NCBI GenBank assembly: GCA_964405435.1
Contig: CAYOOD010000065.1
Location: forward strand, 1-43,440
DNA: 43,440 nt
Reading direction: 5' to 3'
Origin: an uncultured bacterium
GTDB taxonomy: Bacteria > Cyanobacteriota > Cyanobacteriia > Cyanobacteriales > Oscillatoriaceae
The translations under genes and the position numbers were made by a program. The notes beneath the pieces were generated by a model that did not search any database, was not told where the DNA came from, and saw only the letters and a program-made list of their open reading frames with translations. Positions 3,426-35,297 of this stretch are shown here, piece by piece. Position 1 is the first letter of the stretch. Every line of letters starts with the position of its first letter.

Positions 3426-3695
3426 CTACAGATGGGGAGATCGGACGAGGGACTGCCGAGACACCAACTTCTCAAACTGAGCCTGAGTCTGCTGCAAGAG
3501 CTGCGCTCGACTATCCACCGCTTCGGTGAGCGTCGGAACCAAGTTGCGGGCTTGTAAAGTCATGTGGAGCTGAAGATGGGCCACATACTCGCAAATATCT
3601 TCCCGATCCGAATAGCTGGAGTTTTGAGACAGTTGCGCTTTCAAAGTGTTCTCCTTATCTCTGTGCCTTTTTTCAACACCCATAGAAGTTACCAT
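3426..3695 (-). CDS. Small hypothetical ORF, 45-89 aa depending on start. It may not be expressed.
   Basis: The only sizeable ORF in the 1.3-kb gap between the CheC-like gene and the histidine kinase. I recognise no family, and no convincing RBS. Confidence 0.15.
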   Translation of the reverse strand: MVTSMGVEKRHRDKENTLKAQLSQNSSYSDREDICEYVAHLQLHMTLQARNLVPTLTEAVDSRAQLLQQTQAQFEKLVSRQSLVRSPHL

Positions 3696-4565: not shown

Positions 4566-7238
4566 ATGTACGTCCCAGACAATCCAGAGCTGTTCGAGCT
4601 GTTTTTGAAACATACCCCTACTGCTGTGGCAATGGTCGATCGCCAGATGTGCTACCTGCTAACTTCTCAGCGGTGGCTGACTGATTGGGGTTTGAGCGGC
4701 TGCGAACTCATCGGTCGTTCTCATTACGAAGTGTTTCCCACCCTGAAAAACACTCGAGAAGAAGACGAAAGGGGAAAAAAGGAATTAATTTATCCAGAAG
4801 CAAAAGCTGAGGCACTCGGCGCGGCAGAGCGCTGGCGGCAAATCCAAGCCTCGTGTTTAGCGGGAGCAGTGGAGAGATGGCAAGAAGAGTGTTCGATCGG
4901 CGATCGAGAAGGGCTGCGAGTCAAGTGGGAGGCGCATCCTTGGAGGGCACAGAGCGGTGAAATCGGAGGGTTGATTCTGTTTGCAGAACAAGCAGGCAAC
5001 AGCGAATCGGACGATCGCGCTTTCCAAAGGAGCGCGGCGGCGGCAAAAGAACGAGCCCGTGCCGACGAAAACTCCCTGCGCCGGCAGAGCGAAGTTTTGG
5101 TGCAATTGTCGAAGAGCCCAACCCTAAAAGGCAGCAATCTCAAAGCTGCCCTCAGAGAAATTGCCTCGTCAGCGGCGGCGACGCTAGAAGTGAGTCGGGT
5201 GAGCGTGTGGCTGTATAGCAACTCCGACAAGCGAATTAAATGTATCGAAGTGTACGATCGCGAAAAAGGAAGTCACGGCAGCGGCGGAGATTTGCTCAGC
5301 GCCGCCGATATTGCGAATTGCTTGCAGGCATTAGAAACCGATCGGGCGATCGCCGCCACCAATGCCCGTCTCGACGCGAGCACGCGATCGTTTGCCGAAT
5401 TGTATCTCAGGGGCGGCGAAACCGCCGCGATGCTCAACGTTCCCATCCGCATCGGCGGGCAACTGGTAGGATTCATCTGTCACGAACAAGCCGGCAGGGA
5501 AAGGCGGTGGCTGTTAGGAGAAATCAATTTTGCCGCCTCTATCGGAGACTTTACCGCCCTCGCCTTGGAAAGCTGCGATCGCGCCAAAGCCAAAACCGCG
5601 CTCTTGCAAGCCAAAGACCAACTGCAAGCCGTTTTAGACGCCGTGCCCGGGTGCGTTTCCTGGTTCAGTTCCGACTTGAAATATCTGGGCGTCAACGGAT
5701 ATTTAGCCCAAACCTTCAACATGAAACCGGCAGAATTTGTCGGTAAAACCATAGGATTTTTGCACGGTTCTCCCGAATTTAACAACCTGGTGCCAGATTT
5801 TTTTGCTTCCCCAGAAAAAGAAGCCAGCCGAGAAATTGAAGTAGTTGTCAAAGAAGGGAAGCGATATTTTCTAGTCGTTTCTCAGAAATACCTAAACGGG
5901 AAGGCGGCGGTATTTGTGGGCTTCGACATCACCGATCGCAAGCAAGCCGAAAAAGCCCTGGCTGAGGCAAACGAAGCGCTGGAAATGAGAGTCGAACAGC
6001 GGACGAGAGACTTGAAAGACGCGATCGCGCAATTGCAAGAAGAAATCGAACACCGGCAGCAAATAGAAGAAGTGCGGAACGTCCTCGAATTCTCCATCAA
6101 CCAAGCAGCAGATGCCGTTTTCTGGCTGACGCCAGAGGCGCGATTTTTCTACGTCAACGATGCCGCCTGCCTTTCGCTAAACTACAGCCGAGAAGAACTC
6201 CTCTCGCTGACCTTGCACGATATCAACCCGGACATCCCCGCCGAAGTCTGGCCGGATTACTGGGACGAAATCAGAGAATTTGGCTCCGTCAGACTGGAAT
6301 CGAACCACTGCAGCAAAGAAGGGCAGATATTTCCGGTAGAAATTACTATCAATTATTTTCACGTCAACGGCAATGAATACAATTGCATTTTTGCCAGAGA
6401 TATCAGCGATCGCAAGCAAGTCGAATCAGAATTGTACCAAGCCAAACTCGCCGCCGAAGCCGCCAACCGAGCCAGAAGCTCTTTTCTGGCGAATATGAGC
6501 CACGAACTGCGCACCCCCTTAACCGCCATCATCGGCTACAGCGAACTGCTGCAAGAAGACCTGCAAGATCTGGGCATGAGCGATACAGATTTCATCCCCG
6601 ACTTGCAAGCCATCCACACGGCGGGCCAAAAGCTGCTGGCCCTGCTCAGCAACATCCTCGATTTCTCGAAAATCGAATCGGGGCAAATGGGGCTCGACCT
6701 CACCTCGTTCAGCGTCGCTCACCTGCTAGAAGAAGTCGAGAACATCATGCGCCCGCAGGTGGAGCAAGACGACAATACCCTAACCGTCACCTGTAACGAG
6801 GACGTGGGCAGCATGTACGCCGACTGGCACAAGGTGCAGCAGATTCTGTTTAATTTGCTCAGCAATGCCACCAAATTTACCGAAAACGGCACGATCTCCC
6901 TGGATGTCTATCGCCAAGACACCCCTGATTTCCGAGCCCTCCGATCGGGGGCCAGTCTCGCTCGCAGGGAGGCAAAAAACGCAGGCAGCGTCGATTCGTG
7001 GATTGCATTTCGAGTCAGCGACACCGGCATCGGCATCAGCCCAGAGCAGATCAAAACAATTTTCCAGGCATTTACCCAAGCAGACGAATCCACCACGCGC
7101 CGTTACGGCGGCACGGGCATGGGATTGGCTCTGAGTCGCAGCTTGTGCCAGATGATGGGCGGCGAGATCCTCGTCGAGAGCGAGCTCTCAGAGGGCTCGA
7201 CTTTTACGGTTTACCTGCCTGCGTGCGTTAACCAATAA
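4566..7238 (+). CDS. Multi-sensor histidine kinase with PAS, GAF, two PAS/PAC, HisKA and HATPase_c domains. It has no receiver.
   Basis: N-terminal PAS ('[24 protein letters not shown]'). GAF ('[11 protein letters not shown]...[17 protein letters not shown]'). H-box '[21 protein letters not shown]'. N box '[12 protein letters not shown]' and G boxes 'DTGIGIS' and '[13 protein letters not shown]'. Confidence 0.9.
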
Positions 7239-7614
7239 GCAGCAGGGAGGGGGGAGCTTTCAAAAGCGGGTGAGAGTGGGAGAAAAGAAAAATTTCCCCC
7301 CTTTTTTTCTCCCCCCGTCTCTCGCTGCTCGGGCGCGATCGCCTTCACAAAATATGTCGCGGCAAGTTAGAGTTTCATCTATGACAAATGCGGGCTTTTC
7401 TGTTGGCGGCGCTTTCCGGACTGGCTTTTCGCGCTCCTTCCGCTTGGAATCGGGCACTCCGGCGCTGCCTCCCGCGCGAAAAGTCCGCGAAAAAACACTC
7501 GCCGACGGTGCTGGCAGGCTGCACGCATCCCCGATAGAGCGCGATCGCGCGATCGCCTCCGACACCTTCCATTAAAAACTCCCTGCTCCCACAATCCCTC
7601 GAGTGGTTGTTGTT

Positions 7615-8874
7615 ATGGCCAACATTTTAGTGGTTGACGACGATTTGACCGTTCAATTAGTGCTGCAAGATTTGCTGGAGAGCGAAGGACACGAGGTAAC
7701 GGTCGCTCCAGACGGCTCAGAAGCCCTAGAATTGGCCCTGCGCCTGCATCCCGACGTGATGATTTGCGACTGGATGATGCCGGTCATCGACGGGATAGAA
7801 CTGTGCCGGCGCGTCAAAGCCTCTCCAGAACTGGCTGCTACTTTTTTCATCTTGCTCACCGCCCGCGAGCAGCTCTCCGATCGCGTCAAAGGGCTCGACG
7901 CCGGCGCTGACGAGTTCCTCTCCAAACCGATAGAAACTGAGGAATTGCTGGCGCGGGTGCGGGCGGGCTTGCGATCGCGTTCTCTCACCCTGCAGTTGAG
8001 CAAAACCTTGCAAGAATTGCAGCAAACGCAGGCGCAACTGGTGCAGAGCGAAAAAATGTCCTCCCTCGGGCAGCTCGTTGCCGGGATTGCCCACGAAATT
8101 AACAACCCCGTCACCTTCATCTACGGCAATCTCGCCCATGTAGAAAGCTATTCCGCAGAACTCATCGAGCTGCTGCAGCTTTACGAGGAACTCGTCCCCA
8201 ACCCGCCGGCAGCGATTCGCGACAAACTCGCCGCCCTTGACAAAGATTTTTTGATTCAAGACTTGCAAAAAGTCATCGATTCCATGCAAACCGGGGCCGA
8301 TCGCATCCGCCAAATTGTTTTATCCCTGCAAGATTTTTCCAGAAGCGATCGCGCTGGGTGGCAGATGGTGGACATTCACCAATGTCTCGACAATACTTTA
8401 GGGCTTTTGCAGCACCGCTTGCACTTTCCCGCCAGCGAAGCGGCTTCAAAGGCGCTAGAGAGTTCTGGCATTGAGGCGATCAAAAAATACGGCAACCTGC
8501 CCGAGGTAGAATGCTATGCGGGGGAATTGAATCAAGCATTTTTAAACATTCTTAACAATGCTATTGACGTTCTCAGCCAAAAAGACAAGCCGCGATCGCC
8601 TCGCATTACCATCACAACCGAAATAGCAGATGCCACTTCAGTCAGAATTCGGATTGCCGACAATGGAGCAGGCATGAGCGAATCCGTCAAATCTCGCATT
8701 TTTGACCCCTTCTTTACCACAAAACCCGTGGGCTCTGGCACGGGCTTGGGGCTGGCAATCTGCTACCAAATTATCGTCGCCCAGCATGGCGGAACCCTGC
8801 AATGCTTTTCCGAACCCGGACAAGGGTCAGAATTTTGCATTCAGCTTCCCACGCGCCCGAACCGGCATCCCTAG
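7615..8874 (+). CDS. Response-regulator receiver fused to a histidine kinase (REC-HisKA-HATPase_c). Start taken as ATG 7615; the ORF track starts at GTG 7603.
   Basis: Receiver 'ILVVDDDLTV...DVMICDWMMPVIDG...LSKP'. Coiled coil, then H-box 'LVAGIAHEINNPVTFIYGNL'. N box 'LNILNNAIDV', G boxes 'DNGAGMS' and 'GSGTGLGLAICYQII'. Confidence 0.85.
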   Translation: MANILVVDDDLTVQLVLQDLLESEGHEVTVAPDGSEALELALRLHPDVMICDWMMPVIDGIELCRRVKASPELAATFFILLTAREQLSDRVKGLDAGADEFLSKPIETEELLARVRAGLRSRSLTLQLSKTLQELQQTQAQLVQSEKMSSLGQLVAGIAHEINNPVTFIYGNLAHVESYSAELIELLQLYEELVPNPPAAIRDKLAALDKDFLIQDLQKVIDSMQTGADRIRQIVLSLQDFSRSDRAGWQMVDIHQCLDNTLGLLQHRLHFPASEAASKALESSGIEAIKKYGNLPEVECYAGELNQAFLNILNNAIDVLSQKDKPRSPRITITTEIADATSVRIRIADNGAGMSESVKSRIFDPFFTTKPVGSGTGLGLAICYQIIVAQHGGTLQCFSEPGQGSEFCIQLPTRPNRHP

Positions 8875-9359
8875 TGTTTGGTTAAGATTGTTGTGGAGGC
8901 TGGGTGGGAGGGTTGCCGGGAAAAGGGGGAGAGGGGGGGAGGGGGAGAGGGAAAAATGAAGTGGCTTGGCTTAATTAGCTGACAGAACAGTAGGCGCAGC
9001 AGGAAGCCGTCCAAAAGGAGAATGAAAAAGCTTTTATACAGCTATCAATCCTAATTTTTTTGCTCACTTTGGCTTTTTTTCGTTCGCGTCGGATGCTTGG
9101 CCAACTGCCTGACTGCTTATTTTCATACCTGCAAAACCGCTGGAGTTCTCGTGGGCCAAAATTCGGGGAGTTGACGATGACGTAACTGTTCTATTCAATT
9201 GTAGTGTGAGCGTCCAGCGCGCCCTCCTGAAAAAACGTCTTTTTACATGCCCAGGGATGCTCGCCTTGGATGATGCCGAAACTGGATGGATGAGAACTTT
9301 GCTGGCGGATCAAAGCCTCGCCAGAACTTGCGACAACTTTTTGTATGCAGGGGGTCATA

Positions 9360-12300
9360 ATGGAATCTGAAAATCCCTCGCTGCTCTCCCAGTATAAAGA
9401 CTGTATTGAGCGCCACTGTATCGCCGTGGCTGCCGATACCGCGCTACTGGACGCTATAAAACTGATGGGGCAAACCAACGATCGCGACTTCGGCGTGCAG
9501 GCGCAGCCGGAAGTGAAACCAGAGACAGCCATGCGAACGAGCTGTGTTTTGGTGGTGGAAGGCGATCGCCTGGTGGGCTTGATGACAGAACAGGACATCG
9601 TGAGGATCGCCGCGCGAGAGGGCAGCTTGCGGGAGGTGACGGTTGCTGAGGTGATGGAGCGGCAGTTGATAACCTGCACGGAAGAAGAAGCGCGAGAACC
9701 CCTGCGAGTCATCCAACTATTGCGCCAGCACGGCATCCGCCACTTGCCCGTCACGAACGAGCGAGGTCAACCGCTAGGCATAGTGACGCCAGAGAGCATT
9801 CGCGCCACCTTGCAATCAGCAGACGTACTCAAGAGCCGAACCGTCCGAGAAGTCATGGCAGAAAGGGCGATCCACGCCCCAGCCAGCGCGACGCTGCTAG
9901 AGGTGGCCAAACTCATGGCCGAGCATCGGGCGAGCTGCGCGGTTATCGGTGCGGAGATCGCCCCGGCAAAAATTCGCCCTCTGGGAATCGTGACGGAGCG
10001 GGATCTCGTGCAAGCCCAAGCCCTAGAAGTGAATTTGAGAGAAGCGATCGCCGAACGGGTGATGAGCGCTCCCCTATTTCTAACCAGTCCCGACGATTCC
10101 CTGTGGGAGGCTCACCAACAAATGCAGCGGCTGAATATCCGGCGCTTAGTCGTTGTTGACCGCGAAGGCTATTTGGCGGGACTGGTGACACATGCGAGTA
10201 TTTTGCAAGCGATCGATTTAAACGAACTGCACGGAGTGATTGTCGCCTTGAAACAGCAGGTGCAGCAACTAAAAACCGAGAACGTCGATTTGCTAAAGCG
10301 CCTGAATAGCCAGCTCGCGCGAGAAGTGAGCGATCGCGCCGCGAGGCTGCAAGAATCCGCGCAGAAAAATCAACTCTTAGCCGATATGGCACTGCGGATT
10401 CGCGCCTCTTCGAGTTTAGACGCGATTCTCAATACCACCGTCGCCGAAGTTCGCCAACTGCTGCAAGCCGATCGCGTCATCATTTACCGCTTCGATCCCG
10501 ATTGTAGCGGCAAAGTGATTGTAGAATCTGTTGAACGAGTGGAATGGTCTATTATCAACAGTGTTGTCAAAGATGAGTGCTTCGAGGCCGGATGGTTCGC
10601 TCCGTATAAAAACCGCCGTTCCAAAGCGATCGCCGATATCGAAAATGCCGGATTGAGCCCCTGCCACGTTGATTTTTTAAAGCTGTTTGACGTGAAAGCT
10701 AATCTCATCGTCCCCATCGGGTTTGACGAGACGTTGTGGGGACTTCCGATCGCGCATCAGTGTGCGCGATCGCGGCAGTGGCAGCCGGAAGAAATAGAAT
10801 TTCTGGAAAACTTATCCGTCCAGGTAGAAATCGCGATTCAGCAAGCGACACTGATCGAGCAAATTCAAACCGCCAATGCACAACTCGCCAGCGAAGTCGC
10901 CCAGAGAACCGAGCAATTGCAGCGGGAACTCGAACGCACGCAGCGAGCCGAAAAAGCAAGCCGGGAACGGGAAGCAGTGCTGCGGAGCTTCTACGACTCT
11001 GCACCGATGATGATGGGCGTTGTGGAACTGTTAGACGATGACATCCTGCATTTATCGGACAACGCGACAACGGCGCAATTTTTCGGAACGACTCCGAAAG
11101 CAATGCAGGAACGATGCGCCAGCGAAATGGGGGCGGAACGAGAATATATTCTCTGGTGGATTAGCTATTATCGGGAGAGCCAGAGATTAGGTCAGCCCGT
11201 TCGCTTTGAATACCAGCACGAGCGAAAGGGAACGGTCAAGTATCTGTCGGCAACCGTTTCCTACATCGGGCAAGGGGAGAGCGATCGCCCCCGTTTTTCC
11301 TATATTGTCGAGGATATAAGCGATCGCAAGCTCGCAGAAATAGCCCTGCAAAAAAGCGAGGAAAAATACCGGCAAATTGTCGAAACCACCTCAGAAGGCA
11401 TCTGGGTGCTGGATGTGGAAAACAAAACCAGCTTTGTGAATGCCAAGATGGCAGAAATGCTCGGCTACACCGTTGAGGAAATGCAGGGAATGCCTTTGTT
11501 TGCCTTTATGGAAGCCGAAGAACAAAGGCTGGCGCAAGCTTATTTAGAACGCCGCTATCGGGGGATTAGCGAACATCACGATTTCAAATTCCGCCGCAAA
11601 GACGGCTCCGATCTGTGGGCGATGCTATCGACGACAGCGATTCTCGATGCGGCAGGCAACTATGCTGGTGGTTTCGCAATGCTTGCGGATATCAGCGATC
11701 GCGTGCGGGCAGAAGCCGCCCTGCGAGAAAGCGAAGAACGCTGGCAACTGGCGCTGCGCGGCACTCAGGACGGGATCTGGGACTGGAATGTCAAAGCCCA
11801 GCAAGTTTTCTTTTCCGAGCGCTGGAAGGCAATGCGCGGGTTTGAACCCCACGAAATCGGCAACTCTCTACAGGAGTGGTACAGTCGCATTCATCCTGAA
11901 GATGTGCAAAAAGTCAGACAAGCGCTCGACGATCACTTTGCCCGCAAAACGCCTTTGTTCACCGCTGAATACCGCGTGCAGCGCAAAGATGGCAGCTATA
12001 TGTGGATTCTCGACCGGGGACAGGCGCTTTGGGACGAAACCGGCAATGTCGTGCGGATGGCGGGATCGGAAAGCGACATCAGCGATCGCAAACAGGCTGA
12101 AGAATCCCTGCGCCAGAGCGAAGCCTCCCTGCGCGCCTTTTTCCGCGCCATTCCCGACGCCATCTTTCAAGTCTGCAGGGATAGAACCTGTGGCGACGCG
12201 GGCGATTTGCTCTTGCACGAGCTAGCTTCATGCGGCTCTGTGAAAATCCTCAAATCCAACCAAGAGACGAACGCAGGGCGAATTCCAGAAATCCTGCCCC

Positions 12301-15300
12301 TGGCTCTGGCACAGTTGCCGGTGCAGTACCTCGATCGGGCGATCGAAACTGGCGAGCTGCAAGTTTGCGAATACGAAATCGCTCTCGACGGCGAAACGCG
12401 CTGCCAAGAAGCCCGCATTGTTGCCAGCGAATGCGATCGCGCTTTTGTAGTCTTGCGCGACATTACCGAGCGGAAAAAAACTGAAGAAAGATTGCGAAAA
12501 TTTGAAGGCATTGTCTCGAACATTCCCGATGCCATTTTTTTGATCGACCGCGACTATACCTATCAAGTTGCCAACCAGACTTATTTAGACTGGCACGAAA
12601 CCTCCGCCGCTGAGATTGTCGGACGTTCGGTTGCCGACATGATAGGGCAGGAAGTCTTCGAGACCGTTGCCAAACCTCACCTCGATCGCTGTCTGGCGGG
12701 AGAAATTGTCCGCTACGAGCAGTGGTTTGAGTATCGCCACTCCCTGCCTCGATTTCTGAGCGTCACTTATGCGCCTTACGCCGAGCCAGACGGCACCATA
12801 TCGGGCATCGCCGTCAGCCTGCACGACTTGACAGAACTCAAACAAGCCGAAGAGGCGTTATGGCAGAGCGAACAAAGATTTCAGATTGCGATCGAACACA
12901 TGCCAGATGTCTGCGTGATTTACGATCGCGACCGGCGATTGCAGTATGTCAATCAGCAGGGATTGGAGCGGACGGGATGGCCCTTAGAACAGTTCATCGG
13001 CCAGCGAGATGAAGATTTATTTCCTCCCGAAGTGACTTCTAGCTATCTGCCGATTTTGCTGCAGACTGTTGCGACGAAAACCTATCAAGTAGGAGAGTGT
13101 ACGATTCGGCTTCCCGATGCAGAGCCCTACACCATCATTGCCAAGTACGTCCCCCTGCTCGACGAAGCGGGCGAGATTCAACAAATCCTGGGCATCACCT
13201 TTGATATCACCGATCGCCAGCGCTCCGAAGAAGCCTTGAAAGCGAGTGAAGCTCGCTTCCAAGCCTTCATGCAAAATATTCCCGCTGCCACTTGGATTGC
13301 CGATGATGCAGGCATATTAGTCTATGCAAATGCCTCATTTATGAAAGGGGTGCTGTTGTCTCGTCAGGATGCGATCGGCAGAAATCTGTTTGAAATTTTT
13401 TCGCCGGAAATGGCTCAGCAATATGTAGAGAATAACCGCCTTGTTGCTCAAGCGCAAACGGTGCTAGAAACCATTGAAACGGCAACCCGATCCGATGGTT
13501 CGCTGGGCGAATACCTGGTTTACAAATTTCCGATTCCCTCCACGTCTGAAAACTTCCTCATCGGGGGTGCGGCGATCGACATCACCGAGCGCAGGGCGCT
13601 AGAGCGAGAGCTAGCCGCGAAACAACAATTGCTGGATGCCTTTATCACGAGCGCTCCAGTGGGCATGACGGTACTCGATCGCCAGTGCCGCTACGTTCTC
13701 GTCAATGAAGCTTTAGCAGAAATTAATGGGCTATCAGTAGCCGAACATATCGGGAAAACCCCCTGGGAAATCGTACCCGATCTGGCACCGAAACAAGCGG
13801 GCATCTTTGAACATGTCCTGACAACGGGCGAACCTGTCCTCTATGTAGAGATTGCTGGAGAGACGCAGAAACTGCCAGGGGTATTGCGGACGTGGTTAGT
13901 TTCTTATTTCCCGATTCAGTCGCCGGAAACCCAACCCATCGGGCTCGGCATTGTTGTTGTCGAAATCACCGAGCGCAAGCAAGCAGAAGCCGCGCTGCGC
14001 GAGAGCGAGGAAAAGTTTCGCCAGTTGGCCGAAAACATTCACCAAGCCTTTTTTATGACTGATAAGAAGGGAAAAGTTCTTTATATTTCTCCAGCCTACG
14101 AGCGAATATGGGAGAGAAGTTGCGAAAGCCTGTATAAAAATCCTTTATCTTGGATGGAGTGCATCTATGCAGATGATTATAAACGAATCCAATGGGTTTT
14201 CAGCAGGCAATTGCGATCCAGTATATCCGTCGATGAAACTTATCGAATTGTCCGATCGGATGGACAGATTCGCTGGATTGTGTCTCGCTCGGCTCCTATT
14301 TTCGATGAAAGGGGAGAGGTTTACCGCTTTGCCGGCATTGCCGAAGATATCACAGAGCAAAAATGGGCGGAAGATGCCCTCCAGCGGCAATTGCAGAAAG
14401 CGTTGCTCCTGCAAAAAATCACGGATGAAATCCGCCAAAACCTCAACACGCAGCACATTTTTGAAACGGCTGCTATTCAAATCGGAGAGGCATTTGGGGT
14501 GAATCGCTGTCTGATTCACGCCTACATTGCCCAACCAGAACCGAGGCTGCCTTTGGTGGCGGAATACTTGCTGGGAGGCTATCCGTCGTTGAAGGACACA
14601 GAAATTCCCGTTGCAGACAATATTCACGCCCAAACCGTGTTAAGAGAAGAACGGGCGATCGCGACGCCGGATGTCTACAGCGAACCGCTATTTGAGCCAG
14701 TATTTCACCTGTGCCGTTACCTGCAAATCCAGTCAATGCTGACGGTGCGGACTTCTTATCAGGGCGAACCGAATGGTTTAATCGGGCTGCACCAGTGCGA
14801 TCGCGCCCGCGCCTGGATGCCCGATGAAATTGAATTGCTCGAAGCCGTCGCCGCTCAGATGGGAATTGCCCTGGCGCAAGCGGCTCTCTTAGAACGAGAA
14901 ACCCACAGGAGCGAAGAACTGGCGCTGAAAAACATCGCCCTAGAGCAAGCGTCGCGAGAAGCCGAAACCGCCAACCGCGCCAAGAGCGAATTTCTCGCCA
15001 ATATGAGCCACGAATTGCGCACGCCATTAAACGCTATCCTGGGATTTGCCCAAGTGATGGGCGGCGATTCGTCTCTCAAAAAGGAACACCAACAACAATT
15101 AGCGATTATCAATCGCGCCGGCGAGCACCTGCTGGAATTAATCGACGACATTTTAGAAATGTCCAAAATCGAAGCCGGTAGAGTCACTTTAAATGACACG
15201 AACTTTGACCTGCTGCACCTGCTCGATACCCTCAAAGAAATGCTGTACTTAAAAGCGCGGGCAAAAGGATTAAATCTCGCCTTCGAGCTAGCTGCTTCTC

Positions 15301-16409
15301 TTCCCTCCTTCGTGCGAACGGATGAAGGGAAACTGCGCCAAGTTTTGCTCAACATCTTGGGCAATGCCATTAAATTTACGAAATCGGGCACCGTCACCCT
15401 GCGCGCGAAAGCGAACGCGATCGAAGCAGGCAGCGGGCACCGCGAAACAGCCAGCCAAGCCCGTTTATTATTTGAAATCTCCGATACCGGCCCCGGCATT
15501 GCCCCAGCGGAAATGAACAAGTTATTTGAATCCTTCGGACAAACCGAAACAGGCCGAAAATCGGGACAAGGAACGGGGTTGGGATTGCCCATCAGCCGCA
15601 AATTCGTGCAACTGATGGGAGGAAATATCAGCGTCAAAAGCACAGTCGGACAGGGCAGCATTTTTAGCTTTAACGTTCCCGTCACGCTCATCGACGCGAC
15701 GGATGTTCTGCTGCCGACGCGGCAGCGCAAGATCGTGTGTTTAGCCCCCAATCAGCCGAGCTATCGGATTCTGGTCGTTGACGACATCTCCGACAGCCGC
15801 TTGCTGCTTTCGCAAATTCTCGCCGCCATTGGCTTCGAGGTGCGGGAAGCGGAGAATGGGCAGCAAGCCGTTGATTTGTTGCACAGTTGGCAGCCGCACT
15901 TGATTTTAATGGACATGCGGATGCCGGTGATGGACGGCTACGAGGCAACCAAACAGATTAAATCCGGCTCGAACGGAGAGGCTACAACGATTCTTGCCCT
16001 GACGGCTAACGCCTTTGAAGAAGACCGCATAACTGTTCTGGCTGCCGGGTGCGATGATTTCATTCGCAAGCCTTTTCAAAAAGAGGAGCTTTTAGAAAAA
16101 ATCGGAAAGCATCTCGGGCTCGCCTACATCTATGAAGAGGAGAGCAGCTTCAGCCAAAGCGATCGGCCAAAAACTGAAGGGATTTCTTCTCCGGCTGCGG
16201 CGATCGCGCACTTGGCTCAAATGCCGCCGGAATGGGTAGCAGAACTCTTCAAACTGGCGTCTCAATGCAGCGACGACTTGATTTTAGAATTAGTCGAAGA
16301 ACTTCCCCCCGATCGCGCTCCGCTAGCAGAAGTGGTTGCAGATCTTGCCCATAACTTCCAGTTTGAAAAAATTCTGGAATTGCTCGAACCGATGGAGAGA
16401 GCCAACTGA
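9360..16409 (+). CDS. Giant hybrid sensor histidine kinase: four CBS domains, GAF, at least seven PAS/PAC modules, a second GAF, HisKA, HATPase_c, REC and an unassigned C-terminal domain of about 90 aa. Its length is 2354 aa if started at ATG 9345.
   Basis: Start chosen at ATG 9360, which has a GGGGG Shine-Dalgarno 8 nt upstream. CBS pairs: 'LVVEGDRLVGLMTEQDIVR', 'PLGIVTPESIRA', 'PLGIVTERDLVQA', 'GLVTHASILQAI'. Repeated PAC endings read '...DITERK/DISDRK'. H-box '[21 protein letters not shown]'. 'NILGNAIKFT...DTGPGIAP...GTGLGLPISRKFV'. Receiver 'ILVVDDISDSR...LILMDMRMPVMDG...IRKPF'. Confidence 0.9.
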   Translation: MESENPSLLSQYKDCIERHCIAVAADTALLDAIKLMGQTNDRDFGVQAQPEVKPETAMRTSCVLVVEGDRLVGLMTEQDIVRIAAREGSLREVTVAEVMERQLITCTEEEAREPLRVIQLLRQHGIRHLPVTNERGQPLGIVTPESIRATLQSADVLKSRTVREVMAERAIHAPASATLLEVAKLMAEHRASCAVIGAEIAPAKIRPLGIVTERDLVQAQALEVNLREAIAERVMSAPLFLTSPDDSLWEAHQQMQRLNIRRLVVVDREGYLAGLVTHASILQAIDLNELHGVIVALKQQVQQLKTENVDLLKRLNSQLAREVSDRAARLQESAQKNQLLADMALRIRASSSLDAILNTTVAEVRQLLQADRVIIYRFDPDCSGKVIVESVERVEWSIINSVVKDECFEAGWFAPYKNRRSKAIADIENAGLSPCHVDFLKLFDVKANLIVPIGFDETLWGLPIAHQCARSRQWQPEEIEFLENLSVQVEIAIQQATLIEQIQTANAQLASEVAQRTEQLQRELERTQRAEKASREREAVLRSFYDSAPMMMGVVELLDDDILHLSDNATTAQFFGTTPKAMQERCASEMGAEREYILWWISYYRESQRLGQPVRFEYQHERKGTVKYLSATVSYIGQGESDRPRFSYIVEDISDRKLAEIALQKSEEKYRQIVETTSEGIWVLDVENKTSFVNAKMAEMLGYTVEEMQGMPLFAFMEAEEQRLAQAYLERRYRGISEHHDFKFRRKDGSDLWAMLSTTAILDAAGNYAGGFAMLADISDRVRAEAALRESEERWQLALRGTQDGIWDWNVKAQQVFFSERWKAMRGFEPHEIGNSLQEWYSRIHPEDVQKVRQALDDHFARKTPLFTAEYRVQRKDGSYMWILDRGQALWDETGNVVRMAGSESDISDRKQAEESLRQSEASLRAFFRAIPDAIFQVCRDRTCGDAGDLLLHELASCGSVKILKSNQETNAGRIPEILPLALAQLPVQYLDRAIETGELQVCEYEIALDGETRCQEARIVASECDRAFVVLRDITERKKTEERLRKFEGIVSNIPDAIFLIDRDYTYQVANQTYLDWHETSAAEIVGRSVADMIGQEVFETVAKPHLDRCLAGEIVRYEQWFEYRHSLPRFLSVTYAPYAEPDGTISGIAVSLHDLTELKQAEEALWQSEQRFQIAIEHMPDVCVIYDRDRRLQYVNQQGLERTGWPLEQFIGQRDEDLFPPEVTSSYLPILLQTVATKTYQVGECTIRLPDAEPYTIIAKYVPLLDEAGEIQQILGITFDITDRQRSEEALKASEARFQAFMQNIPAATWIADDAGILVYANASFMKGVLLSRQDAIGRNLFEIFSPEMAQQYVENNRLVAQAQTVLETIETATRSDGSLGEYLVYKFPIPSTSENFLIGGAAIDITERRALERELAAKQQLLDAFITSAPVGMTVLDRQCRYVLVNEALAEINGLSVAEHIGKTPWEIVPDLAPKQAGIFEHVLTTGEPVLYVEIAGETQKLPGVLRTWLVSYFPIQSPETQPIGLGIVVVEITERKQAEAALRESEEKFRQLAENIHQAFFMTDKKGKVLYISPAYERIWERSCESLYKNPLSWMECIYADDYKRIQWVFSRQLRSSISVDETYRIVRSDGQIRWIVSRSAPIFDERGEVYRFAGIAEDITEQKWAEDALQRQLQKALLLQKITDEIRQNLNTQHIFETAAIQIGEAFGVNRCLIHAYIAQPEPRLPLVAEYLLGGYPSLKDTEIPVADNIHAQTVLREERAIATPDVYSEPLFEPVFHLCRYLQIQSMLTVRTSYQGEPNGLIGLHQCDRARAWMPDEIELLEAVAAQMGIALAQAALLERETHRSEELALKNIALEQASREAETANRAKSEFLANMSHELRTPLNAILGFAQVMGGDSSLKKEHQQQLAIINRAGEHLLELIDDILEMSKIEAGRVTLNDTNFDLLHLLDTLKEMLYLKARAKGLNLAFELAASLPSFVRTDEGKLRQVLLNILGNAIKFTKSGTVTLRAKANAIEAGSGHRETASQARLLFEISDTGPGIAPAEMNKLFESFGQTETGRKSGQGTGLGLPISRKFVQLMGGNISVKSTVGQGSIFSFNVPVTLIDATDVLLPTRQRKIVCLAPNQPSYRILVVDDISDSRLLLSQILAAIGFEVREAENGQQAVDLLHSWQPHLILMDMRMPVMDGYEATKQIKSGSNGEATTILALTANAFEEDRITVLAAGCDDFIRKPFQKEELLEKIGKHLGLAYIYEEESSFSQSDRPKTEGISSPAAAIAHLAQMPPEWVAELFKLASQCSDDLILELVEELPPDRAPLAEVVADLAHNFQFEKILELLEPMERAN

Positions 16410-16582
16410 TCGGCTGCGGCGAGGGGGAGAGCGGGAGAGCTTTCTGCCCCGTCAAATCACAAGCCTAATCGCTTATCGCGGGGGAGCATCCCATTTTTGG
16501 AGTGCGTTCGCGAAGCGGGTGCGTAAGCGTTGCGGCTCTTTTATGAGCTAGCACCAACGTCTCGTTCGCTCTTGAATAGATA

Positions 16583-16599
16583 GGGAGCGAGACGCTCCC
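16583..16599. other. Perfect short hairpin GGGAGCG-aga-CGCTCCC in the long intergenic region downstream of the giant kinase
   Basis: 7-bp GC-rich stem with a 3-nt loop, read directly. No adjacent U tract, so its assignment as a terminator is uncertain. Confidence 0.3.
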
Positions 16600-17110
16600 A
16601 CTTCTGAAAAAAGGTGTTTTGACAAAAACGGGATGCTCCCCTTATCACGTCCGGTGGGATGGGCTGTACGATCTAGAGGAGGGCACGCCGACGGCGGGGA
16701 AACTCCGAAACCGTCCGCCTTGCTGAGGAACTTGGCAGCGTCGCGATCGAGACTCCCTATTTTTTTTACTCCCTTTTCGGTCTAAAATTGCCGTTGGCTG
16801 CTATTTCTCTTTTTGCCGCCTCCCCCCCTTCCCCTTCTTGATCGGTTTCTTGCGGCGGGGAGGGAGCCAGTGGAGGCAACCTCTCACTTTTGTAGGGGAA
16901 AACGCATATAGCCCTTCTGCACAGGGCTGCGCTAACGAGAGAAGAAGCTCTCGGTTTTCACCGAAAATCGATGATGCGAATGCTCTTTCGCGACGCCCGG
17001 TATCTACATGTACGCTTGACGATTCCGTCAGAGGAAGAGAGGACGATCTCTCTGAAAAGTTGCTTTTTACAGCCGATCGATGGAAAAATTATACCTGCCA
17101 GTCATAAAAA

Positions 17111-18180
17111 ATGAGTAAACCTTCAGCGAAGTCCTATAAAGGTGACATTCTACTGGTTGACGATACCCCTGACAATCTGCGGGTTTTAGCTTCTCTCCTA
17201 GAGAATCAGGGGTATCGCATTCGCAAAACCTTGAATGGGACGATGGCTTTAACTGCCTGTGAAAACTTGTTGCCCGACCTGATTTTACTGGATATTTTAA
17301 TGCCGGATATGGACGGATATGAGGTGTGCAAGCGGCTGAAAGATTCCGAAAGAACGCGGGACGTGCCCGTGATTTTTATTAGCGCTCTCGATAAGACCCT
17401 TGATAAGGTAAAGGCGTTTAAAGTTGGGGGTGCAGATTACATCAGCAAGCCGTTTCAAACTGAAGAAGTCATCGCTCGCGTCACGCACCAACTGACGATC
17501 CAGCAGCAGCACCGCCAACTGATCGAACAAAACGCACAACTGCAAAAGTTGAATGAAACCATCACGCGCTACAATGCCGAAATCGCCAAATCCAATGCCG
17601 AATTAGAACAATTTGCCTACATGGCATCCCACGATTTGCAATCGCCGCTCCAGCTTACGATCGGTTATGCAGATATACTGCTCTGGAAATACGAAACGAA
17701 TCTCAATGAGGAGATGAAACGCTATATTGGCGAGATTGTGAAGGCGGGTACGCGGATGCAGCTGCTCATTAAGGATTTGCTGGCTTATTCTAGGCTGGGA
17801 GCGCGCCCTCCCCAGTTGCAAGCGGCTGACTGCCAACTCGCTTTAGCAGAGGCGCTGGCTAATTTGAGCGAGGAAATCTCTGCCAGCGGGGCGGTTATCA
17901 CCCATTCGGATTTGCCAACCGTCACGGGCGATCGCACGCAATTGATGCAGCTTTTTCAAAATCTCATTGGCAATGCCATTAAATTTCGCCGCCCGGACAT
18001 TTCCCCCTCATTTTTGAGGTTTTCCAGCGCCTGCACCCGCATACGGCATACCCGGGCACTGGGCTCGGTATGTCTATCTGCAAAAAAATTGTCGAACGCC
18101 ACGGCGGGCAGATTTGGGTTGAATCTGAAGTCGGAGCGGGAACGACGTTTTATTTTACACTTCCTCGCATGGAAGAATAA
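17111..18180 (+). pseudogene. REC-HisKA-HATPase_c histidine kinase with an internal deletion and frameshift in the ATP-binding domain. It is a probable pseudogene, or else an assembly error.
   Basis: The receiver ('ILLVDDTPDN...LILLDILMPDMDGYEV...ISKPF') and the phytochrome-type H-box 'MASHDLQSPLQ' are intact. The N box '[13 protein letters not shown]' is followed about 4 codons later, in the -1 frame, by '[56 protein letters not shown]', which ends at the TAA at 18178-18180. About 35-40 codons are missing, including the DxGxG box. The ORF-track frame reads through to 18364 as nonsense. Confidence 0.6.
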
Positions 18181-18446
18181 ATCGGCTGGGAAGTGTTTTA
18201 AAATCGATGCAAGCTTTCTCTATCGGTTGAATGGCTGGCCGCATCGCTGGCACCGGATTCGTCGGGAGGCGATCGCGCGGTCTGGGAAAAAATACCTTCT
18301 AAAAATGCCTGTGATTTATATCACCATTTTTCGGTGTTTGACGTCAGCCAAACGACCGATCTAAATCATTCGCGCCTTCCCCAAAATAGATAGGATAAAA
18401 GAAACCAGCCAACCAGAAAAGAGGCTCGGTAGGGAGAGTAAATTTA

Positions 18447-27176: not shown

Positions 27177-30100
27177 TCAATCATCGCGGCTTTGCCAGTT
27201 ATAGCAGGACTGTTTGGCTCGCTGGTAGTTGGCATCGAGGGCGGGTTCTAAGAGCAAAATAGCGGCGATGCGGCGAGCGATATTCGTCACTGTGCTGACT
27301 TCTTCGGGCCAGAGCGATCGCCCCAATATTTTTTCCTCCCGATAGCTCAGCCATTTTTTAATCACTTGATAGCCGCCGATGGTATAATCCCAAACCTTGA
27401 TCGGGATATTTTTCCAGCAGGCGCGATCGTTCAGGTAAATGTCGCAAGTGGTTGCGCCGAGCTGCTGCATAATTTCCACAGCGGCGCATTCTTCAGGGGT
27501 GTAGGAGCGCTTGAAAATTTTTCCCTTCCCCGGCATGGTGACGCCTCCCTTTCCCGCATACCCCCAACCGACTGTAATTTTTAAATCAGTATCGGCTGGA
27601 GAAAAAAGCGCGATCGCCTGCAATTCCGGGCGAATTTCCCCCGATGTCGCGCCAGAAACCCCACATTCTATATCCAGCAGCGCCGCCACTTGACGCCCCA
27701 ATTCTGATGAAGCAATTAACAATTCTTTGGAATCGGGCAGGGGAATATGGGGCCAATTTTGGCGAATGCCGTCCGCATTTTCTTGTCGGTAAATTGGCGA
27801 ATAACCCACAGCCAAAACGTGCCGCCAAATTAAGCCGGCTGTTTCCGCATCCGCGTCAGGGTTGCAGATATCCAGGCGATGGAAATACGCGCGAACGGCT
27901 GGGGAAAGATTGGCAGTTGGTGTCGCATTTTCTATTTGACAAATGCGGAAAGGAAAATGATAGGAATGCCCCCGCATTAAATCAAAATCACCCAAAGATG
28001 TGATAAAATAAAACGGGACACCTTCACGGCTAGCTGCACTGTTTGGGCGGCTGACTAAAAAAGCATTGTCGGGGAACTGGTGAATGAAAAGGGAGGGGCG
28101 GGGTTCGTTCCACAGGGGGCGCAGTGAAGTATAATAACACCATTTTAATTCATAGGGACGCAACGCATAGCGCATCAGTTGTCGCTCGTCATAGCGTTCT
28201 AAATTTAAAGCTTTTTTTCTGGCTTTCTCGGCATCGAAGCGGGCAGCATCTCGCGTCAAACCCGCGCCAGAGGCTTTGAGTTCCTCCCAGCTAACGGAGG
28301 AGTCAAAGTATTTTTGCATTCGCTCGGCAAGGGCAAATCTGTCACTGTCAATCAAACTATAGCCGCGATTTTCTTTATAGCCCGTAATGGGAGAAATCGC
28401 GCATAGATCTGTTAACTTTGGCCATTTTGAATAGGGGGTATTTGCTTCGCAGGGGCGGAAAGAGTAGCGGTTATTTTTGGTTGGGTTGACAATCTGATAC
28501 TGAGCGTTAAAATCTGCAACGTGCAGGCTGGCGAGCAAGTCAGATCGTTTTTTTGTCCCCCAAAAATGGCGAAATCGGACGATAGATTGCTCGGAGGTAT
28601 CCGCCAGGCACGCCATCAAAGCGATCGCAGTTCCGACGCGAATGCCTTGCGGGTGATATTCTGTAGAAAAAACGCTGGGATCGGCTTTCCCTTCAGGCGT
28701 AATTTTTCCGGTTTCGCGGCTGTCTCCATTCAAACAATCAAACCAGAGTTTGTCAAATTTTTCGAGCAATCGCTGCCGCATGACGGCGAAAGAGGGTTCG
28801 CTCAGATAGGAGAAATTTGAGAGGTAGCACGCCACTGCCCTGCTGTTATTTTCTGCAATCCACTGTTCGGCTAAACGGAAAAAGCGAATGTAGAGATCGT
28901 CGAGATTAAATTTCCGGATTCCCCACTCGGCATTCAGCCCTTGTTTGTAGGAGTCGGCGAATTCTCGTTCGCCTTTCAAGCCGATATCGGCAAAAGCGTT
29001 GTACGGGGGATTGCCTAGAATTACGAGAAGTGACTGAGAAGGAATGGGCGGTTTCCAGTTTGTGAGTGCATTGGCGAGATAAAAACCCGATCGCTCTTTT
29101 TCGCCAGACAAAGGCACGCCAAGGTTTTGCAATAGCAGCCCCAATTGCAAGTGAGCCACGACAAGCGGGGCTGTCAAGATGTCGCAGCCAAAGAGCCGCG
29201 CGATCGCTGCTTGTTTGACATCGCCTCCGGCGGCAGCAATGCAGTTTAAAACTTCGACTAAATACGCCCCGGTTCCGCAACAAGGGTCTATAATAAAAAC
29301 ATTGGGATTTGCCAAACCGTTTTCGATTTTAAAGTCTTCCCGCAAAACGGTATCGACGCGGGCAACCATATACTTGACAATTTCACGGGGAGTGTACCAA
29401 ACGCCCAATTCTTTGCGCAGTTGCGGATCGAATGCTTGCAGGAAAGGTTCGTAGAAATACTGAACGGCTTGCGTTTCGTCAAACTTAGAAAAAAACGCGG
29501 CGCGATGGCAGCGGTTGAGGGCTGCTGCTGCTCGCTCCAGCACTTCGGTTAAGTCTAACACTGCGCCGCCTGGAGGCTCTGCCTCTAGATAAGAAAAAAT
29601 TGCCGAAATTTCCGGCATCTGAAGATAGTGGGGAGTTGCCTTCCACTGAAATTTATCGGAGCGGGTGGGGTTTTCTCGGTGCCACAGTACCCAAGCGGAA
29701 AAGATGCCGTAAAAAAGCGTTTGAACGAAAGTAGAACAGAAGAAATCCTCGCCTGATTCTCCTTTAAATTTAACGGCTAGCGTTTCTTCAAACGCCAGGT
29801 GAACCGCAGCCAGCGCGGGAATATTAATCCGAGCCATTCGAGATTTAGCATCGCGGGCGAAAGACGCCAGAAACCAGGCTAAATCTGCCGGAGTCGCGAT
29901 CGCTGCAGCGTGGCGCATGACGCGCTGGAGGTAGTCGAGAAAGCGATCGCCTTCTGAAAGCGCGATCGCAGATGCACTGACACTCCAGAAATCCGCTTCG
30001 TTCTCGGCGAGGCGATAGCGTTCCACCAGCACCGGTTGCCGGTTCGCATCCCATTCGATTAGAATAAAATCGCGGTAATTGACAACCAAAACGAGGCGAT

Positions 30101-30437
30101 ATTGCTGCAAATCCCCGGCAAGGCGATCGCTGCGGGCAATCTCCCAAATCTCCTCGCCAGTCTCCCGAATCTCAATAACGCCGCGATCGCAATTTTGCCA
30201 GTCGAGGCTGGCTTTGTCCGAAACCTTGCGAAACTGGCTGGCACTGAAGAATCCCCCATCGGGAATTTCCGCGTTTTTGGCGTTTCTGCTGACCGTGCAG
30301 CAAACCCTCGGCTTGAGCGTTTTGCCAACCTCGTTAAAAAGAGTTTCTAAAGCGCTGCGGCAGTCAATTTCGGTGGCGAATCCGCCAGAGGAACGGATGT
30401 CGCGCAGGTGACGGAGGTAGATTTCGAGCCAATTCAT
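27177..30437 (-). CDS. MmeI-like single-chain restriction-modification enzyme (type IIL/IIG). It combines an N-terminal PD-ExK-like domain, a gamma-class N6-adenine methyltransferase and a C-terminal target-recognition region, and it is an orphan.
   Basis: N-terminus parallels MmeI: 'D-WQNCDRGVI-E-I-R' (D-x9-E-x-R) and 'YRLVLVVNYRDFILIEW'. Motif X 'FYEPFLQAFDPQLRKELGVWYTPREIVKYMV'. Motif I 'VFIIDPCCGTGAYLVE'. Motif IV 'LVILGNPPYN'. No BREX or R/S partner genes adjacent. Confidence 0.75.
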   Translation of the reverse strand: MNWLEIYLRHLRDIRSSGGFATEIDCRSALETLFNEVGKTLKPRVCCTVSRNAKNAEIPDGGFFSASQFRKVSDKASLDWQNCDRGVIEIRETGEEIWEIARSDRLAGDLQQYRLVLVVNYRDFILIEWDANRQPVLVERYRLAENEADFWSVSASAIALSEGDRFLDYLQRVMRHAAAIATPADLAWFLASFARDAKSRMARINIPALAAVHLAFEETLAVKFKGESGEDFFCSTFVQTLFYGIFSAWVLWHRENPTRSDKFQWKATPHYLQMPEISAIFSYLEAEPPGGAVLDLTEVLERAAAALNRCHRAAFFSKFDETQAVQYFYEPFLQAFDPQLRKELGVWYTPREIVKYMVARVDTVLREDFKIENGLANPNVFIIDPCCGTGAYLVEVLNCIAAAGGDVKQAAIARLFGCDILTAPLVVAHLQLGLLLQNLGVPLSGEKERSGFYLANALTNWKPPIPSQSLLVILGNPPYNAFADIGLKGEREFADSYKQGLNAEWGIRKFNLDDLYIRFFRLAEQWIAENNSRAVACYLSNFSYLSEPSFAVMRQRLLEKFDKLWFDCLNGDSRETGKITPEGKADPSVFSTEYHPQGIRVGTAIALMACLADTSEQSIVRFRHFWGTKKRSDLLASLHVADFNAQYQIVNPTKNNRYSFRPCEANTPYSKWPKLTDLCAISPITGYKENRGYSLIDSDRFALAERMQKYFDSSVSWEELKASGAGLTRDAARFDAEKARKKALNLERYDERQLMRYALRPYELKWCYYTSLRPLWNEPRPSLFIHQFPDNAFLVSRPNSAASREGVPFYFITSLGDFDLMRGHSYHFPFRICQIENATPTANLSPAVRAYFHRLDICNPDADAETAGLIWRHVLAVGYSPIYRQENADGIRQNWPHIPLPDSKELLIASSELGRQVAALLDIECGVSGATSGEIRPELQAIALFSPADTDLKITVGWGYAGKGGVTMPGKGKIFKRSYTPEECAAVEIMQQLGATTCDIYLNDRACWKNIPIKVWDYTIGGYQVIKKWLSYREEKILGRSLWPEEVSTVTNIARRIAAILLLEPALDANYQRAKQSCYNWQSRDD

Positions 30438-30446
30438 TGTAGCACG

Positions 30447-31496
30447 TCAGCCCTTTAATTCAATATCCCTGCCCCGCAGGCTATCTGCGGTATTTTTGAT
30501 AAAACTGGCGAGCGGTACGGCAATCAACAGCCCCAGCACTCCTCCTAATTTAAATCCTAGCAGCAACGCCACCAAAATCCACACCGGATTTAATCCCGTG
30601 AACCCCCCCAAAACGCGAGGAGCGACAATATTAGAATTTACCCAATCAATGGTAAAAGCAACAATTAAAACTTTGACGCCCAACCAAAAATCTTGCAGTG
30701 CCAGCAGCAGACTGACTAAAACGATACCCACCCCCGTCACCAGCGGGAAAAACGCCATAAAACCGAGGGCGAACCCAAACAGGAGGGCTAGAGGCACGTT
30801 TAGGATGGAAAATGCCAGCGTGATTGCCAGCCCGCTCGCCGCCGCCAAAGTCGCCTGACCGATAAAATAATTGTGAAAATTCTGATAGAGCGATCGCCGC
30901 ACTTGCACCCCCAATCGAGAAGGGAACCACTGAAAAAGTCCGTCCCAGAGGCGCTCGCCGTGGAGGACGAGGTAGAAAGCCAGCACAGCCGTCAGAAAGA
31001 CATTGAGGATGCTGCCGATCGTGTCGATCGCGAAGCTGAGTACCGTTCCGGTGAGGGTTTGTATTTGCTCTGTCAATCGCGCTGTCACTTGTCCAGCCAA
31101 GCCGCTCAAATCAATCGGCAAGTTGCGCGTCAGAGCCCATTGATTGAGAATCAGCAATTGTCGGCTGCCCGACTCAATCCAACTGGGGAGGCGGTTGGCA
31201 AACTCATTTAACTGCTTCAAAAAAATTGGAACAAAAATCAGCCCTAAAGTCGTCAGCATGACGCTGCCAATTAGAAAAACCAACCACAAAGCATTCTCCC
31301 GCTTTACGCCTCGTCTCTGGAGAAATCTAACTGGATAATCCAAAACAAAGGATAATAAAATAGCAGCCAAAAAAATGCTAATTTGCGGTTGAAAAAAGTG
31401 CCAGAGCTGAATCAAGATCCAGCCATTGAGAACCGATAGGGGAAATCCCACCCCCACGACTAACCATTTTGGCAGTTTGTTAACGGATGACTTCAT
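30447..31496 (-). CDS. AI-2E family transporter (PerM/YhhT-like membrane protein)
   Basis: About 350 aa with about 8 predicted TM helices. N-terminus 'WLVVGVGFPLSVLNGWILIQL'. C-terminal helices 'VWILVALLLGFKLGGVLGLLIAVPLASFIK' are typical of the family. Confidence 0.7.
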   Translation of the reverse strand: MKSSVNKLPKWLVVGVGFPLSVLNGWILIQLWHFFQPQISIFLAAILLSFVLDYPVRFLQRRGVKRENALWLVFLIGSVMLTTLGLIFVPIFLKQLNEFANRLPSWIESGSRQLLILNQWALTRNLPIDLSGLAGQVTARLTEQIQTLTGTVLSFAIDTIGSILNVFLTAVLAFYLVLHGERLWDGLFQWFPSRLGVQVRRSLYQNFHNYFIGQATLAAASGLAITLAFSILNVPLALLFGFALGFMAFFPLVTGVGIVLVSLLLALQDFWLGVKVLIVAFTIDWVNSNIVAPRVLGGFTGLNPVWILVALLLGFKLGGVLGLLIAVPLASFIKNTADSLRGRDIELKG

Positions 31497-34295: not shown

Positions 34296-34535
34296 GGATG
34301 CGTGCACTCCAAACGCGATGTCGATAAATATCGGACATTTCGCGGTTTTAGCCAGCGATCGCGCCAGCGCCGAGGGGCGATCGTTTCTCGTTTCCTTACT
34401 GACGGAAAACCGCACTTGGCTGCGATCGACGTCACATCAGAGCCATTCTCGTCATCGGCTTGGAGGGGCGATCGCGCCTCCAAGCGTCTAAGATCGGAAA
34501 CAGAGCCTTATCGCGCCGTTGCGTCGCCGTTGCCC

Positions 34536-35297
34536 ATGCCAGCCACCACACACACCCGCGCCTCTCACTTAGAGATTACCTGGCCCCTCCTGCCCGATGA
34601 TTTTGTCCTGCCAGACGACCCCGTGGAAGATACCGAACACAATCCATTAGCCACTGCCCTGAGTGAAGCGCTCACCTCAGCGCCCGAACTCCTGCAAGAC
34701 GCCCTCATCACCACCAACTTTGCCCTGTGTGCAGGCGTCAACAACCGCACCACCTGCAAAGCGCCAGACTGGATGTATGTACGTCCCGTTCCAGCTTGGC
34801 CCCATTCCCATCCCCGCCGCAGCTACACCCCCCACACTGAAGGGCCAGTCCCTTTGGTCGTGATGGAATTTCTCTCCGCTGGCGACAATGACGAATATTC
34901 CATGCAGTCGCAACAGCGCATCGGCAAGTGGTTTTTTTACGAGCGGATAATTCAGGTGCCGATTTACGCCCTGTTCCGAGCCGAAACCGCCGAGCTAGAA
35001 GTCCACGCCCTGGAATCAGGACTTTACCGAAACCAGACGCCCAATCCAGACGGGCGTTACTGGATACCCGAATTAGACCTATTTCTGGGAGTTTGGCAGG
35101 GAACGCGCTTCAGCCGCACTGGCGCTTGGTTGCGCTGGTGGAATGCGGCTGGCGAACTTTTGTTGTGGCCAGAAGAACGGGAGGCGCTACAACGCCAGCG
35201 TGCCGAGCAAGAACGCCAGCGTGCGGATGCTGCCGAGCAGCGAGCGGCACAACTGGCGGAGCGGCTGCGACAGTTGGGAGTCGATCCCGATAGTTGA
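34536..35297 (+). CDS. Uma2 family endonuclease (DUF820, putative restriction endonuclease-like fold) with a C-terminal coiled-coil tail
   Basis: 'LEITWPLLPDDFVLPDDPVEDTEHNPLATALSEAL', 'PDWMYV', 'LVVMEFLSAGDNDEYSMQSQQRIGKWFFYERIIQVPIYALF' and 'ELEVHALESGLY'. Start at ATG 34536; the ORF-track start at 34302 would overlap the divergent GGDEF gene and is rejected. Confidence 0.8.
   Translation: MPATTHTRASHLEITWPLLPDDFVLPDDPVEDTEHNPLATALSEALTSAPELLQDALITTNFALCAGVNNRTTCKAPDWMYVRPVPAWPHSHPRRSYTPHTEGPVPLVVMEFLSAGDNDEYSMQSQQRIGKWFFYERIIQVPIYALFRAETAELEVHALESGLYRNQTPNPDGRYWIPELDLFLGVWQGTRFSRTGAWLRWWNAAGELLLWPEEREALQRQRAEQERQRADAAEQRAAQLAERLRQLGVDPDS

Follow-up and report, generated by a model that had tools for sequence, protein, structure and literature searches.

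The window analysed in this work, a 43,440-nt stretch of Oscillatoriaceae DNA, carries an array of four kinase genes followed by a gene for a homolog of the major vault protein (MVP; Table 1). Such an array, with MVP directly downstream of it, had been put forward in the original prediction, and both were recovered: the first two kinases lie at 4566–7238 and 7603–8874, the other two at the positions given below, and the product of the gene that follows, with Vault repeats and an MVP_shoulder domain in Pfam, is a true MVP homolog. MVP homologs of Oscillatoriales cyanobacteria have already been described (bioRxiv 10.1101/872010; PMC3762200). The third kinase is a large hybrid protein that continues for approximately 100 residues beyond its REC domain; the extension matches nothing in Pfam and is conserved in more distant relatives. 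A 700-nt stretch (16410–17110) between the hybrid kinase and the fourth kinase gene contains no convincing gene, and an Rfam scan of the whole window revealed no RNA families.

Table 1. Coordinates of the features at the kinase–MVP locus (positions refer to the window).
Feature	Position	Strand	Evidence and remarks
Hybrid kinase, 2354 aa, CBS-GAF-PAS(n)-GAF-HisKA-HATPase_c-REC	9345–16409	+	Pfam
Called ORF, 417 aa: REC, HisKA/DHp and N box, then out-of-frame read-through of 122 residues	17111–18364	+	
REC domain, aa 13–124	17147–17482	+	Pfam Response_reg, E 1.3e-28
HisKA/DHp domain, aa 165–231, H box ASHDLQSPL	17603–17803	+	Pfam HisKA, E 5.7e-12
N box (NLIGNAIKF), last piece of the CA domain still in frame 0	17957–17995	+	Three-frame translation, homolog alignment
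Deletion junction, …CGCCCGGA/CATTTCC…	17997–17998	+	DNA alignments, blastn
CA-domain remnant in the −1 (+2) frame: IFEVFQRLH (F box), GTGLG (G2 box), native stop at 18178–18180	17998–18180	+	
MVP homolog, Vault, Vault_2/3/4 and MVP_shoulder domains	18447–21077	+	Pfam; absent at this position in the sister species

The fourth kinase gene, a two-component signalling gene of this filamentous cyanobacterium, retains the N-terminal elements of a REC-histidine kinase (REC-HK). Its REC domain has the CheY-like fold of response-regulator receivers, with the acidic pocket (D17/D18), the phospho-acceptor aspartate (D61, 17291–17293) and the conserved serine (S91) and lysine (K113) all present and invariant in the homolog alignment. 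The phospho-acceptor histidine of the H box, His174 (17630–17632), is also invariant among the homologs, and the N box is found in the same frame. Beyond the N box, frame 0 of the called ORF gave no HATPase_c match in Pfam, nor did the 122 residues of its tail match any Pfam family. Instead, translation of 18013–18180 in the −1 (+2) frame matched positions 59–109 of the 111 in the HATPase_c profile (E 1.8e-14). The F and G2 boxes exist in this frame only and not in that of the DHp domain, and the G1/D box (DxGxG), which reads DNGIGI in the orthologs, falls together with its flanking strands inside a gap.

These results bear out most of what had been proposed for the gene, namely an ATP-binding domain that is both deleted and frameshifted: it is present as two Pfam-significant halves in different frames with the middle missing. 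The frame changes directly after the N box, as had been stated. IFEVFQ, placed some 4 codons further on, begins at 18010, 14 nt past the N box, and the −1-frame segment does terminate at 18180. The nucleotide-binding loop with the D box, taken to be absent, is indeed lost in comparison with the orthologs.

The frame-0 tail stays open for 122 codons (17996–18364), a length reached by ~0.2% of mononucleotide shuffles, and the same off-frame in the sister species carries one or two stops. Since selection on the old frame is still imprinted on the sequence, we regard this long open tail as probably due to chance. Translation of the broken gene now stops 83 nt short of the MVP start codon, as compared with 266 nt formerly, and no convincing terminator or promoter was seen between the old stop and MVP.

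Homologs were searched for among about 5.8 billion proteins, and the 119 closest were used for the analysis of conservation and architecture. The top match was the window protein itself (P0001), followed by an intact 389-aa REC-HisKA-HATPase_c protein (P0002). The cluster of the latter holds proteins of the MAGs Oscillatoriaceae bacterium SKYG93 and SKW80 (MCS6793186.1, HIK29672.1), and the GTDB representative of its lineage is Oscillatoriaceae cyanobacterium M7585_C2015_266 (L006). The contigs of the P0002 lineage are collinear with the window at 76–82% nt identity and share with it the gene order CheR, CheB, 215-aa gene, GAF-PAS kinase, REC-HK, broken gene, 188/196-aa gene, Rieske, MutS and AI-2E transporter, which identifies the P0002 genes as true orthologs of the broken gene. 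The window gene shows 82–83% aa identity to them over the REC domain, DHp domain and N box, and 85% over the remnant. In SKYG93, SKW80 and M7585_C2015_266 the gene is continuous, encodes 388–389 aa and contains the G1 box DNGIGI, whereas the window gene lacks 97 nt and is frameshifted. The HATPase_c domain (PF02518) is kept in 119/119 of the closest homologs, and none of them has a CA-less architecture. No intact protein closer than 83% was present in the protein database searched, and the protein search, the GTDB representatives and the JGI metagenome contigs yielded no same-species genome with an intact allele for a before/after comparison; the species is absent from the GTDB species representatives, and the junction and its 5′ flank had no exact matches among the JGI metagenome contigs.

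Alignment to orthologous REC-HKs, proposed earlier as a means of sizing the deletion, gave a clean gap of 97 nt (32 codons plus 1) versus both sister species (L001 and L006; DNA alignment, blastn) and a gap of 94 nt versus three more distant homologs (L007, L087 and L089; DNA alignment). Divided by 3, either length leaves a remainder of 1, hence the −1 frame. The peptide lost, as it reads in the sister, is EVTPQVKISAELKSENQEWLIAVSDNGIGIESK; it includes the G1 box, and the columns inside the gap that are conserved in the 119 homologs spell P…DNGIGI, that is, the G1/D box. The earlier estimate of ~110 nt or 35–40 residues was slightly high, because HFPL in front of IFEVFQ is kept as well. In the sister sequences, the closest relatives at hand, the two ends of the deletion (GGA/GGT…AAG/CAT) have no bases in common, and neither microhomology nor direct repeats were seen there. 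A GAG to CCC triple substitution beside the junction was considered as a repair scar and rejected, being not significant at ~20% divergence and located in a variable codon.

The window differs from its sisters also by two blocks, located in the two spacers that flank the gene. An 8.2-kb block (8875–17110) with the hybrid kinase replaces a 35-nt spacer, and the sister species have no 2354-aa hybrid kinase at this position. Related hybrid kinases, with C-termini that align to the last 490–1300 residues, end a few to a few hundred nt before a REC-HK homolog in several other cyanobacteria (L007, L008 and L089/L090; tblastn). As these distant relatives have a similar kinase directly upstream of their REC-HK homolog, the sisters may have lost theirs, and the 2354-aa kinase and the REC-HK could plausibly function as a pair. 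The second, 3.6-kb block (18181–21763) consists of MVP and a 163-aa ORF (21138–21629, minus strand), where in the sisters 38 nt separate the REC-HK from the 188-aa gene. A search for direct or inverted repeats at the borders of this block was negative, and the block may have been gained in the window or lost from the sister species. We considered whether the MVP insertion had split a conserved pair of REC-HK and 196-aa genes and discarded the idea, as the 196-aa neighbour of a further homolog (P0003) is unrelated to the 196-aa protein of the window (E 0.6).

A further 4.1-kb block that is absent from the sisters (26330–30453) contains a 1086-aa ORF (27177–30437, minus strand) with N6_Mtase and Type_ISP_C domains only. 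In the sisters a complete Type ISP enzyme of 1590 aa, with Mrr_cat nuclease, helicase and methylase, is encoded at another position, and the 1086-aa ORF may be an N-terminally truncated or a different restriction-modification enzyme. With 8.2-, 3.6- and 4.1-kb blocks in intergenic spacers, the locus is a hotspot of gene-sized indels relative to the sisters. Elsewhere in the window, the small ORF at 3426–3695 (minus strand) is the best-conserved DNA of the locus (83.7% identity); its C-terminal ~60 residues (…EYVAHLQLHMTLQARNLVPTLTEA.DSRAQLLQQTQAQFEKLVSRQSLV) are almost identical to a 68-aa ORF of the sister (L001, 5517–5723). A Uma2-family ORF (34302–35297, match over aa 107–261) has an N-terminal extension that begins at a GTG codon and overlaps the 5′ end of a divergent PAS-GAF-GGDEF gene (32007–34415), and its true start probably lies further downstream.

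Nei-Gojobori counts against the sister ortholog were used to evaluate selection on the two parts of the broken gene. For the in-frame N-terminal part we obtained pN 0.097, pS 0.619 and omega 0.079, and for the 60-codon out-of-frame remnant, read in its old frame, pN 0.083, pS 0.494 and omega 0.109; the neighbouring genes gave omega values of 0.03–0.10. None of the 21 remnant columns that are at least 90% conserved in the 119 homologs is altered, and in the N-terminal part the substitutions affect 3 of 99 such columns, all conservatively. Read in the old frame, the remnant has no stop and no indel and ends at the ancestral stop region. Thus, of the features by which pseudogenes are recognized, the gene has a frame disrupted relative to intact orthologs and has lost an essential motif, and it displays neither relaxed selection (omega 0.11 for the remnant vs. 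0.08) nor secondary lesions, a combination that fits only a very young event. The remnant appears to have undergone essentially no neutral decay since the deletion, and by a rough estimate the deletion would be younger than ~10% of the divergence from the sister species. That there is one lesion, no further decay and a remnant as conserved as the in-frame part argues for a very recent deletion.

In GHKL/Bergerat-fold kinases the N box provides the Mg-coordinating asparagine, the aspartate of the G1 box contacts adenine, and the G2 box forms the ATP lid. The deletion takes out the central strands of the ATP-binding domain along with the G1 (DxGxG) box, and by shifting the frame by −1 it leaves the F and G2 boxes untranslated. 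From what is known of this fold, a product without the G1 aspartate and glycine loop is predicted not to bind ATP and hence not to autophosphorylate His174, which agrees with the loss of autokinase activity expected for this gene from the start. As the REC domain is N-terminal, a second kinase presumably controlled the output of the ancestral protein by phosphorylation. Before the deletion, the REC domain probably took phosphoryl groups from an upstream kinase, for which the adjacent 2354-aa hybrid kinase would be the obvious candidate, and gated the kinase core, whose output would now be lost.

Taken together, we consider it probable that the gene has suffered a real, very recent 97-bp loss-of-function deletion in a REC-HisKA-HATPase_c hybrid kinase gene and is a young pseudogene. 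An assembly or sequencing artefact, with an intact ~389-aa gene in the true genome, would leave an undecayed remnant just as well, and the source is a draft contig. Comparison of the NCBI assembly with the Logan assembly, both of which may stem from the same or related libraries, showed the lesion to be reproducible at the assembly level: Logan contig SRR12969846_25670 (L086; 10,536 bp), found through a look-up of the neighbouring MVP protein and reported from 3 samples, matches window 16613–27148 at 100% identity without gaps, the junction and the 417-aa ORF included. It is unbranched and the product of an independent assembler. The Logan contig begins inside the 700-nt gap beside a GC-rich hairpin (16583–16599), which hints at a genome-wide repeat or graph branch at that end. 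Self-BLAST of the window revealed no repeats touching 16300–18500, and the only other REC-HK in the window (7603–8874) is 28% identical to the broken gene; together these make repeat collapse or paralog-driven mis-assembly implausible, there being no flanking direct repeats or similar paralogs able to collapse 97 nt. In addition, a clean loss of 97 nt is atypical of short-read or homopolymer errors. All other genes common to the window and the sisters are full length, among them CheR, CheB, both other shared kinases, the 188/196-aa gene, Rieske, MutS and the AI-2E transporter; with these ten other sister-shared genes intact, the contig is not generally error-ridden. An artefact is therefore very unlikely. 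Of the two possibilities raised earlier, a decaying gene or a wrong assembly, a real lesion is favoured by the base-for-base match of the Logan junction, the lack of a repeat or paralog and the intactness of the other shared genes. The word decaying overstates the case, as there is a single lesion with no further decay and a remnant conserved like the in-frame part.

If the deletion is real, its product is best read as that of a pseudogene or, at most, as a kinase-dead REC-DHp stub. We find it unlikely that such a stub is expressed and retained, be it to dephosphorylate a cognate response regulator, to serve as a phosphate sink or to pass on phosphoryl groups for the adjacent hybrid kinase. 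A role of this kind, suggested earlier for the REC and HisKA portion, is mechanistically conceivable: both domains are intact, with D17, D18, D61, S91, K113 and H174 in place and the three deviations from conserved columns all conservative, and the DHp domain of HK853 acts as a phosphatase in isolation (PMC5727384). DrBphP, which has a similar broad type of core, is a kinase-inactive protein working as a net phosphatase (PMC8292422), and in other cyanobacteria REC-HK homologs are directly preceded by hybrid kinases that resemble the 2354-aa protein at the C-terminus. However, the suggestion finds no support at this locus. The absence of CA-less proteins among the 119 closest homologs speaks against it, as do the out-of-frame lesion, which leaves 122 junk residues on the product, and the H-box motif, which is H-D-L-Q-S instead of the phosphatase motif E/DxxT/N. 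Moreover, so little time has passed since the deletion that the conserved state of the N-terminal part carries no information on selection for the truncated form. It is highly improbable that the frameshifted allele amounts to a new kinase-less REC-DHp protein that withdraws phosphoryl groups from the 2354-aa hybrid kinase or diverts them and, with an ORF ending 83 nt before the MVP start, couples this pathway to MVP expression. Scarcely credible, finally, is a programmed −1 frameshift on one of the C5 or T5 runs that lie 6–20 nt past the junction, by which translation would re-enter the old frame and yield a full-length protein with an internal deletion of 32 residues. The canonical X XXY YYZ heptamer is absent from frame 0, the TTTTT run is present in the intact sister genes too, as ordinary Ile-Phe codons, and the restored product would still lack the G1 box as well as roughly one third of the CA fold; with the slippery heptamer missing and the G1 box not restored, we rejected programmed frameshifting.

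We see in the young pseudogene an ordinary loss-of-function allele; the protein architecture concerned is a common one, and no novel type of protein is involved. For annotation we recommend a pseudogene label that names the frameshift and the internal deletion, so that the gene counts neither as a functional kinase nor as a 417-aa "response regulator". The value of the analysis lies in this correct annotation and in the arguments against an assembly error, and it matters little beyond annotation; still, it provides a clean, datable case of the loss of one member of a cyanobacterial kinase array. A stub proven to be active would amount to a natural experiment in which a kinase has become a phosphatase or phosphate sink, but we see no sign of this.

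ChpT (mentioned in PMC5727384) and Spo0B are histidine phosphotransferases derived from kinases; they are kinase-like proteins that are blind to ATP and serve solely in the transfer of phosphoryl groups. Both keep a folded, degenerate CA-like domain that is conserved across lineages, whereas the window allele is a one-off, frameshifted and with a truncated CA domain that is out of frame, and it has no such relatives, all of the 119 homologs having a normal HATPase_c domain. Among solved structures, the best matches to the DHp plus CA core of the intact family were PDB 8f71 (E 1.5e-45) and DrBphP (8avv, E 1.4e-40). The window gene resembles the HisKA cores of the bacteriophytochrome type (COG4251-like) in its SHDLQxPL-type H box. 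Those kinases possess a complete CA domain and a photosensory module, whereas the window gene has an N-terminal REC domain instead and its CA domain is destroyed.

Domain A of EnvZ is an isolated DHp domain with phosphatase activity. Like this domain and the HK853 DHp domain, the putative stub would have a DHp four-helix bundle but no catalytic domain; both of the former are engineered, with clean termini and a canonical E/DxxT/N motif, whereas the window product would have D-x-x-S and a 122-residue nonsense tail. The window gene corresponds to ordinary bacterial pseudogenes that arise by small deletions or frameshifts, in which comparison with intact orthologs likewise shows a single disrupting indel and the loss of an essential motif. 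Nothing material sets the window allele apart from these, and it represents a very young example, free of secondary lesions.
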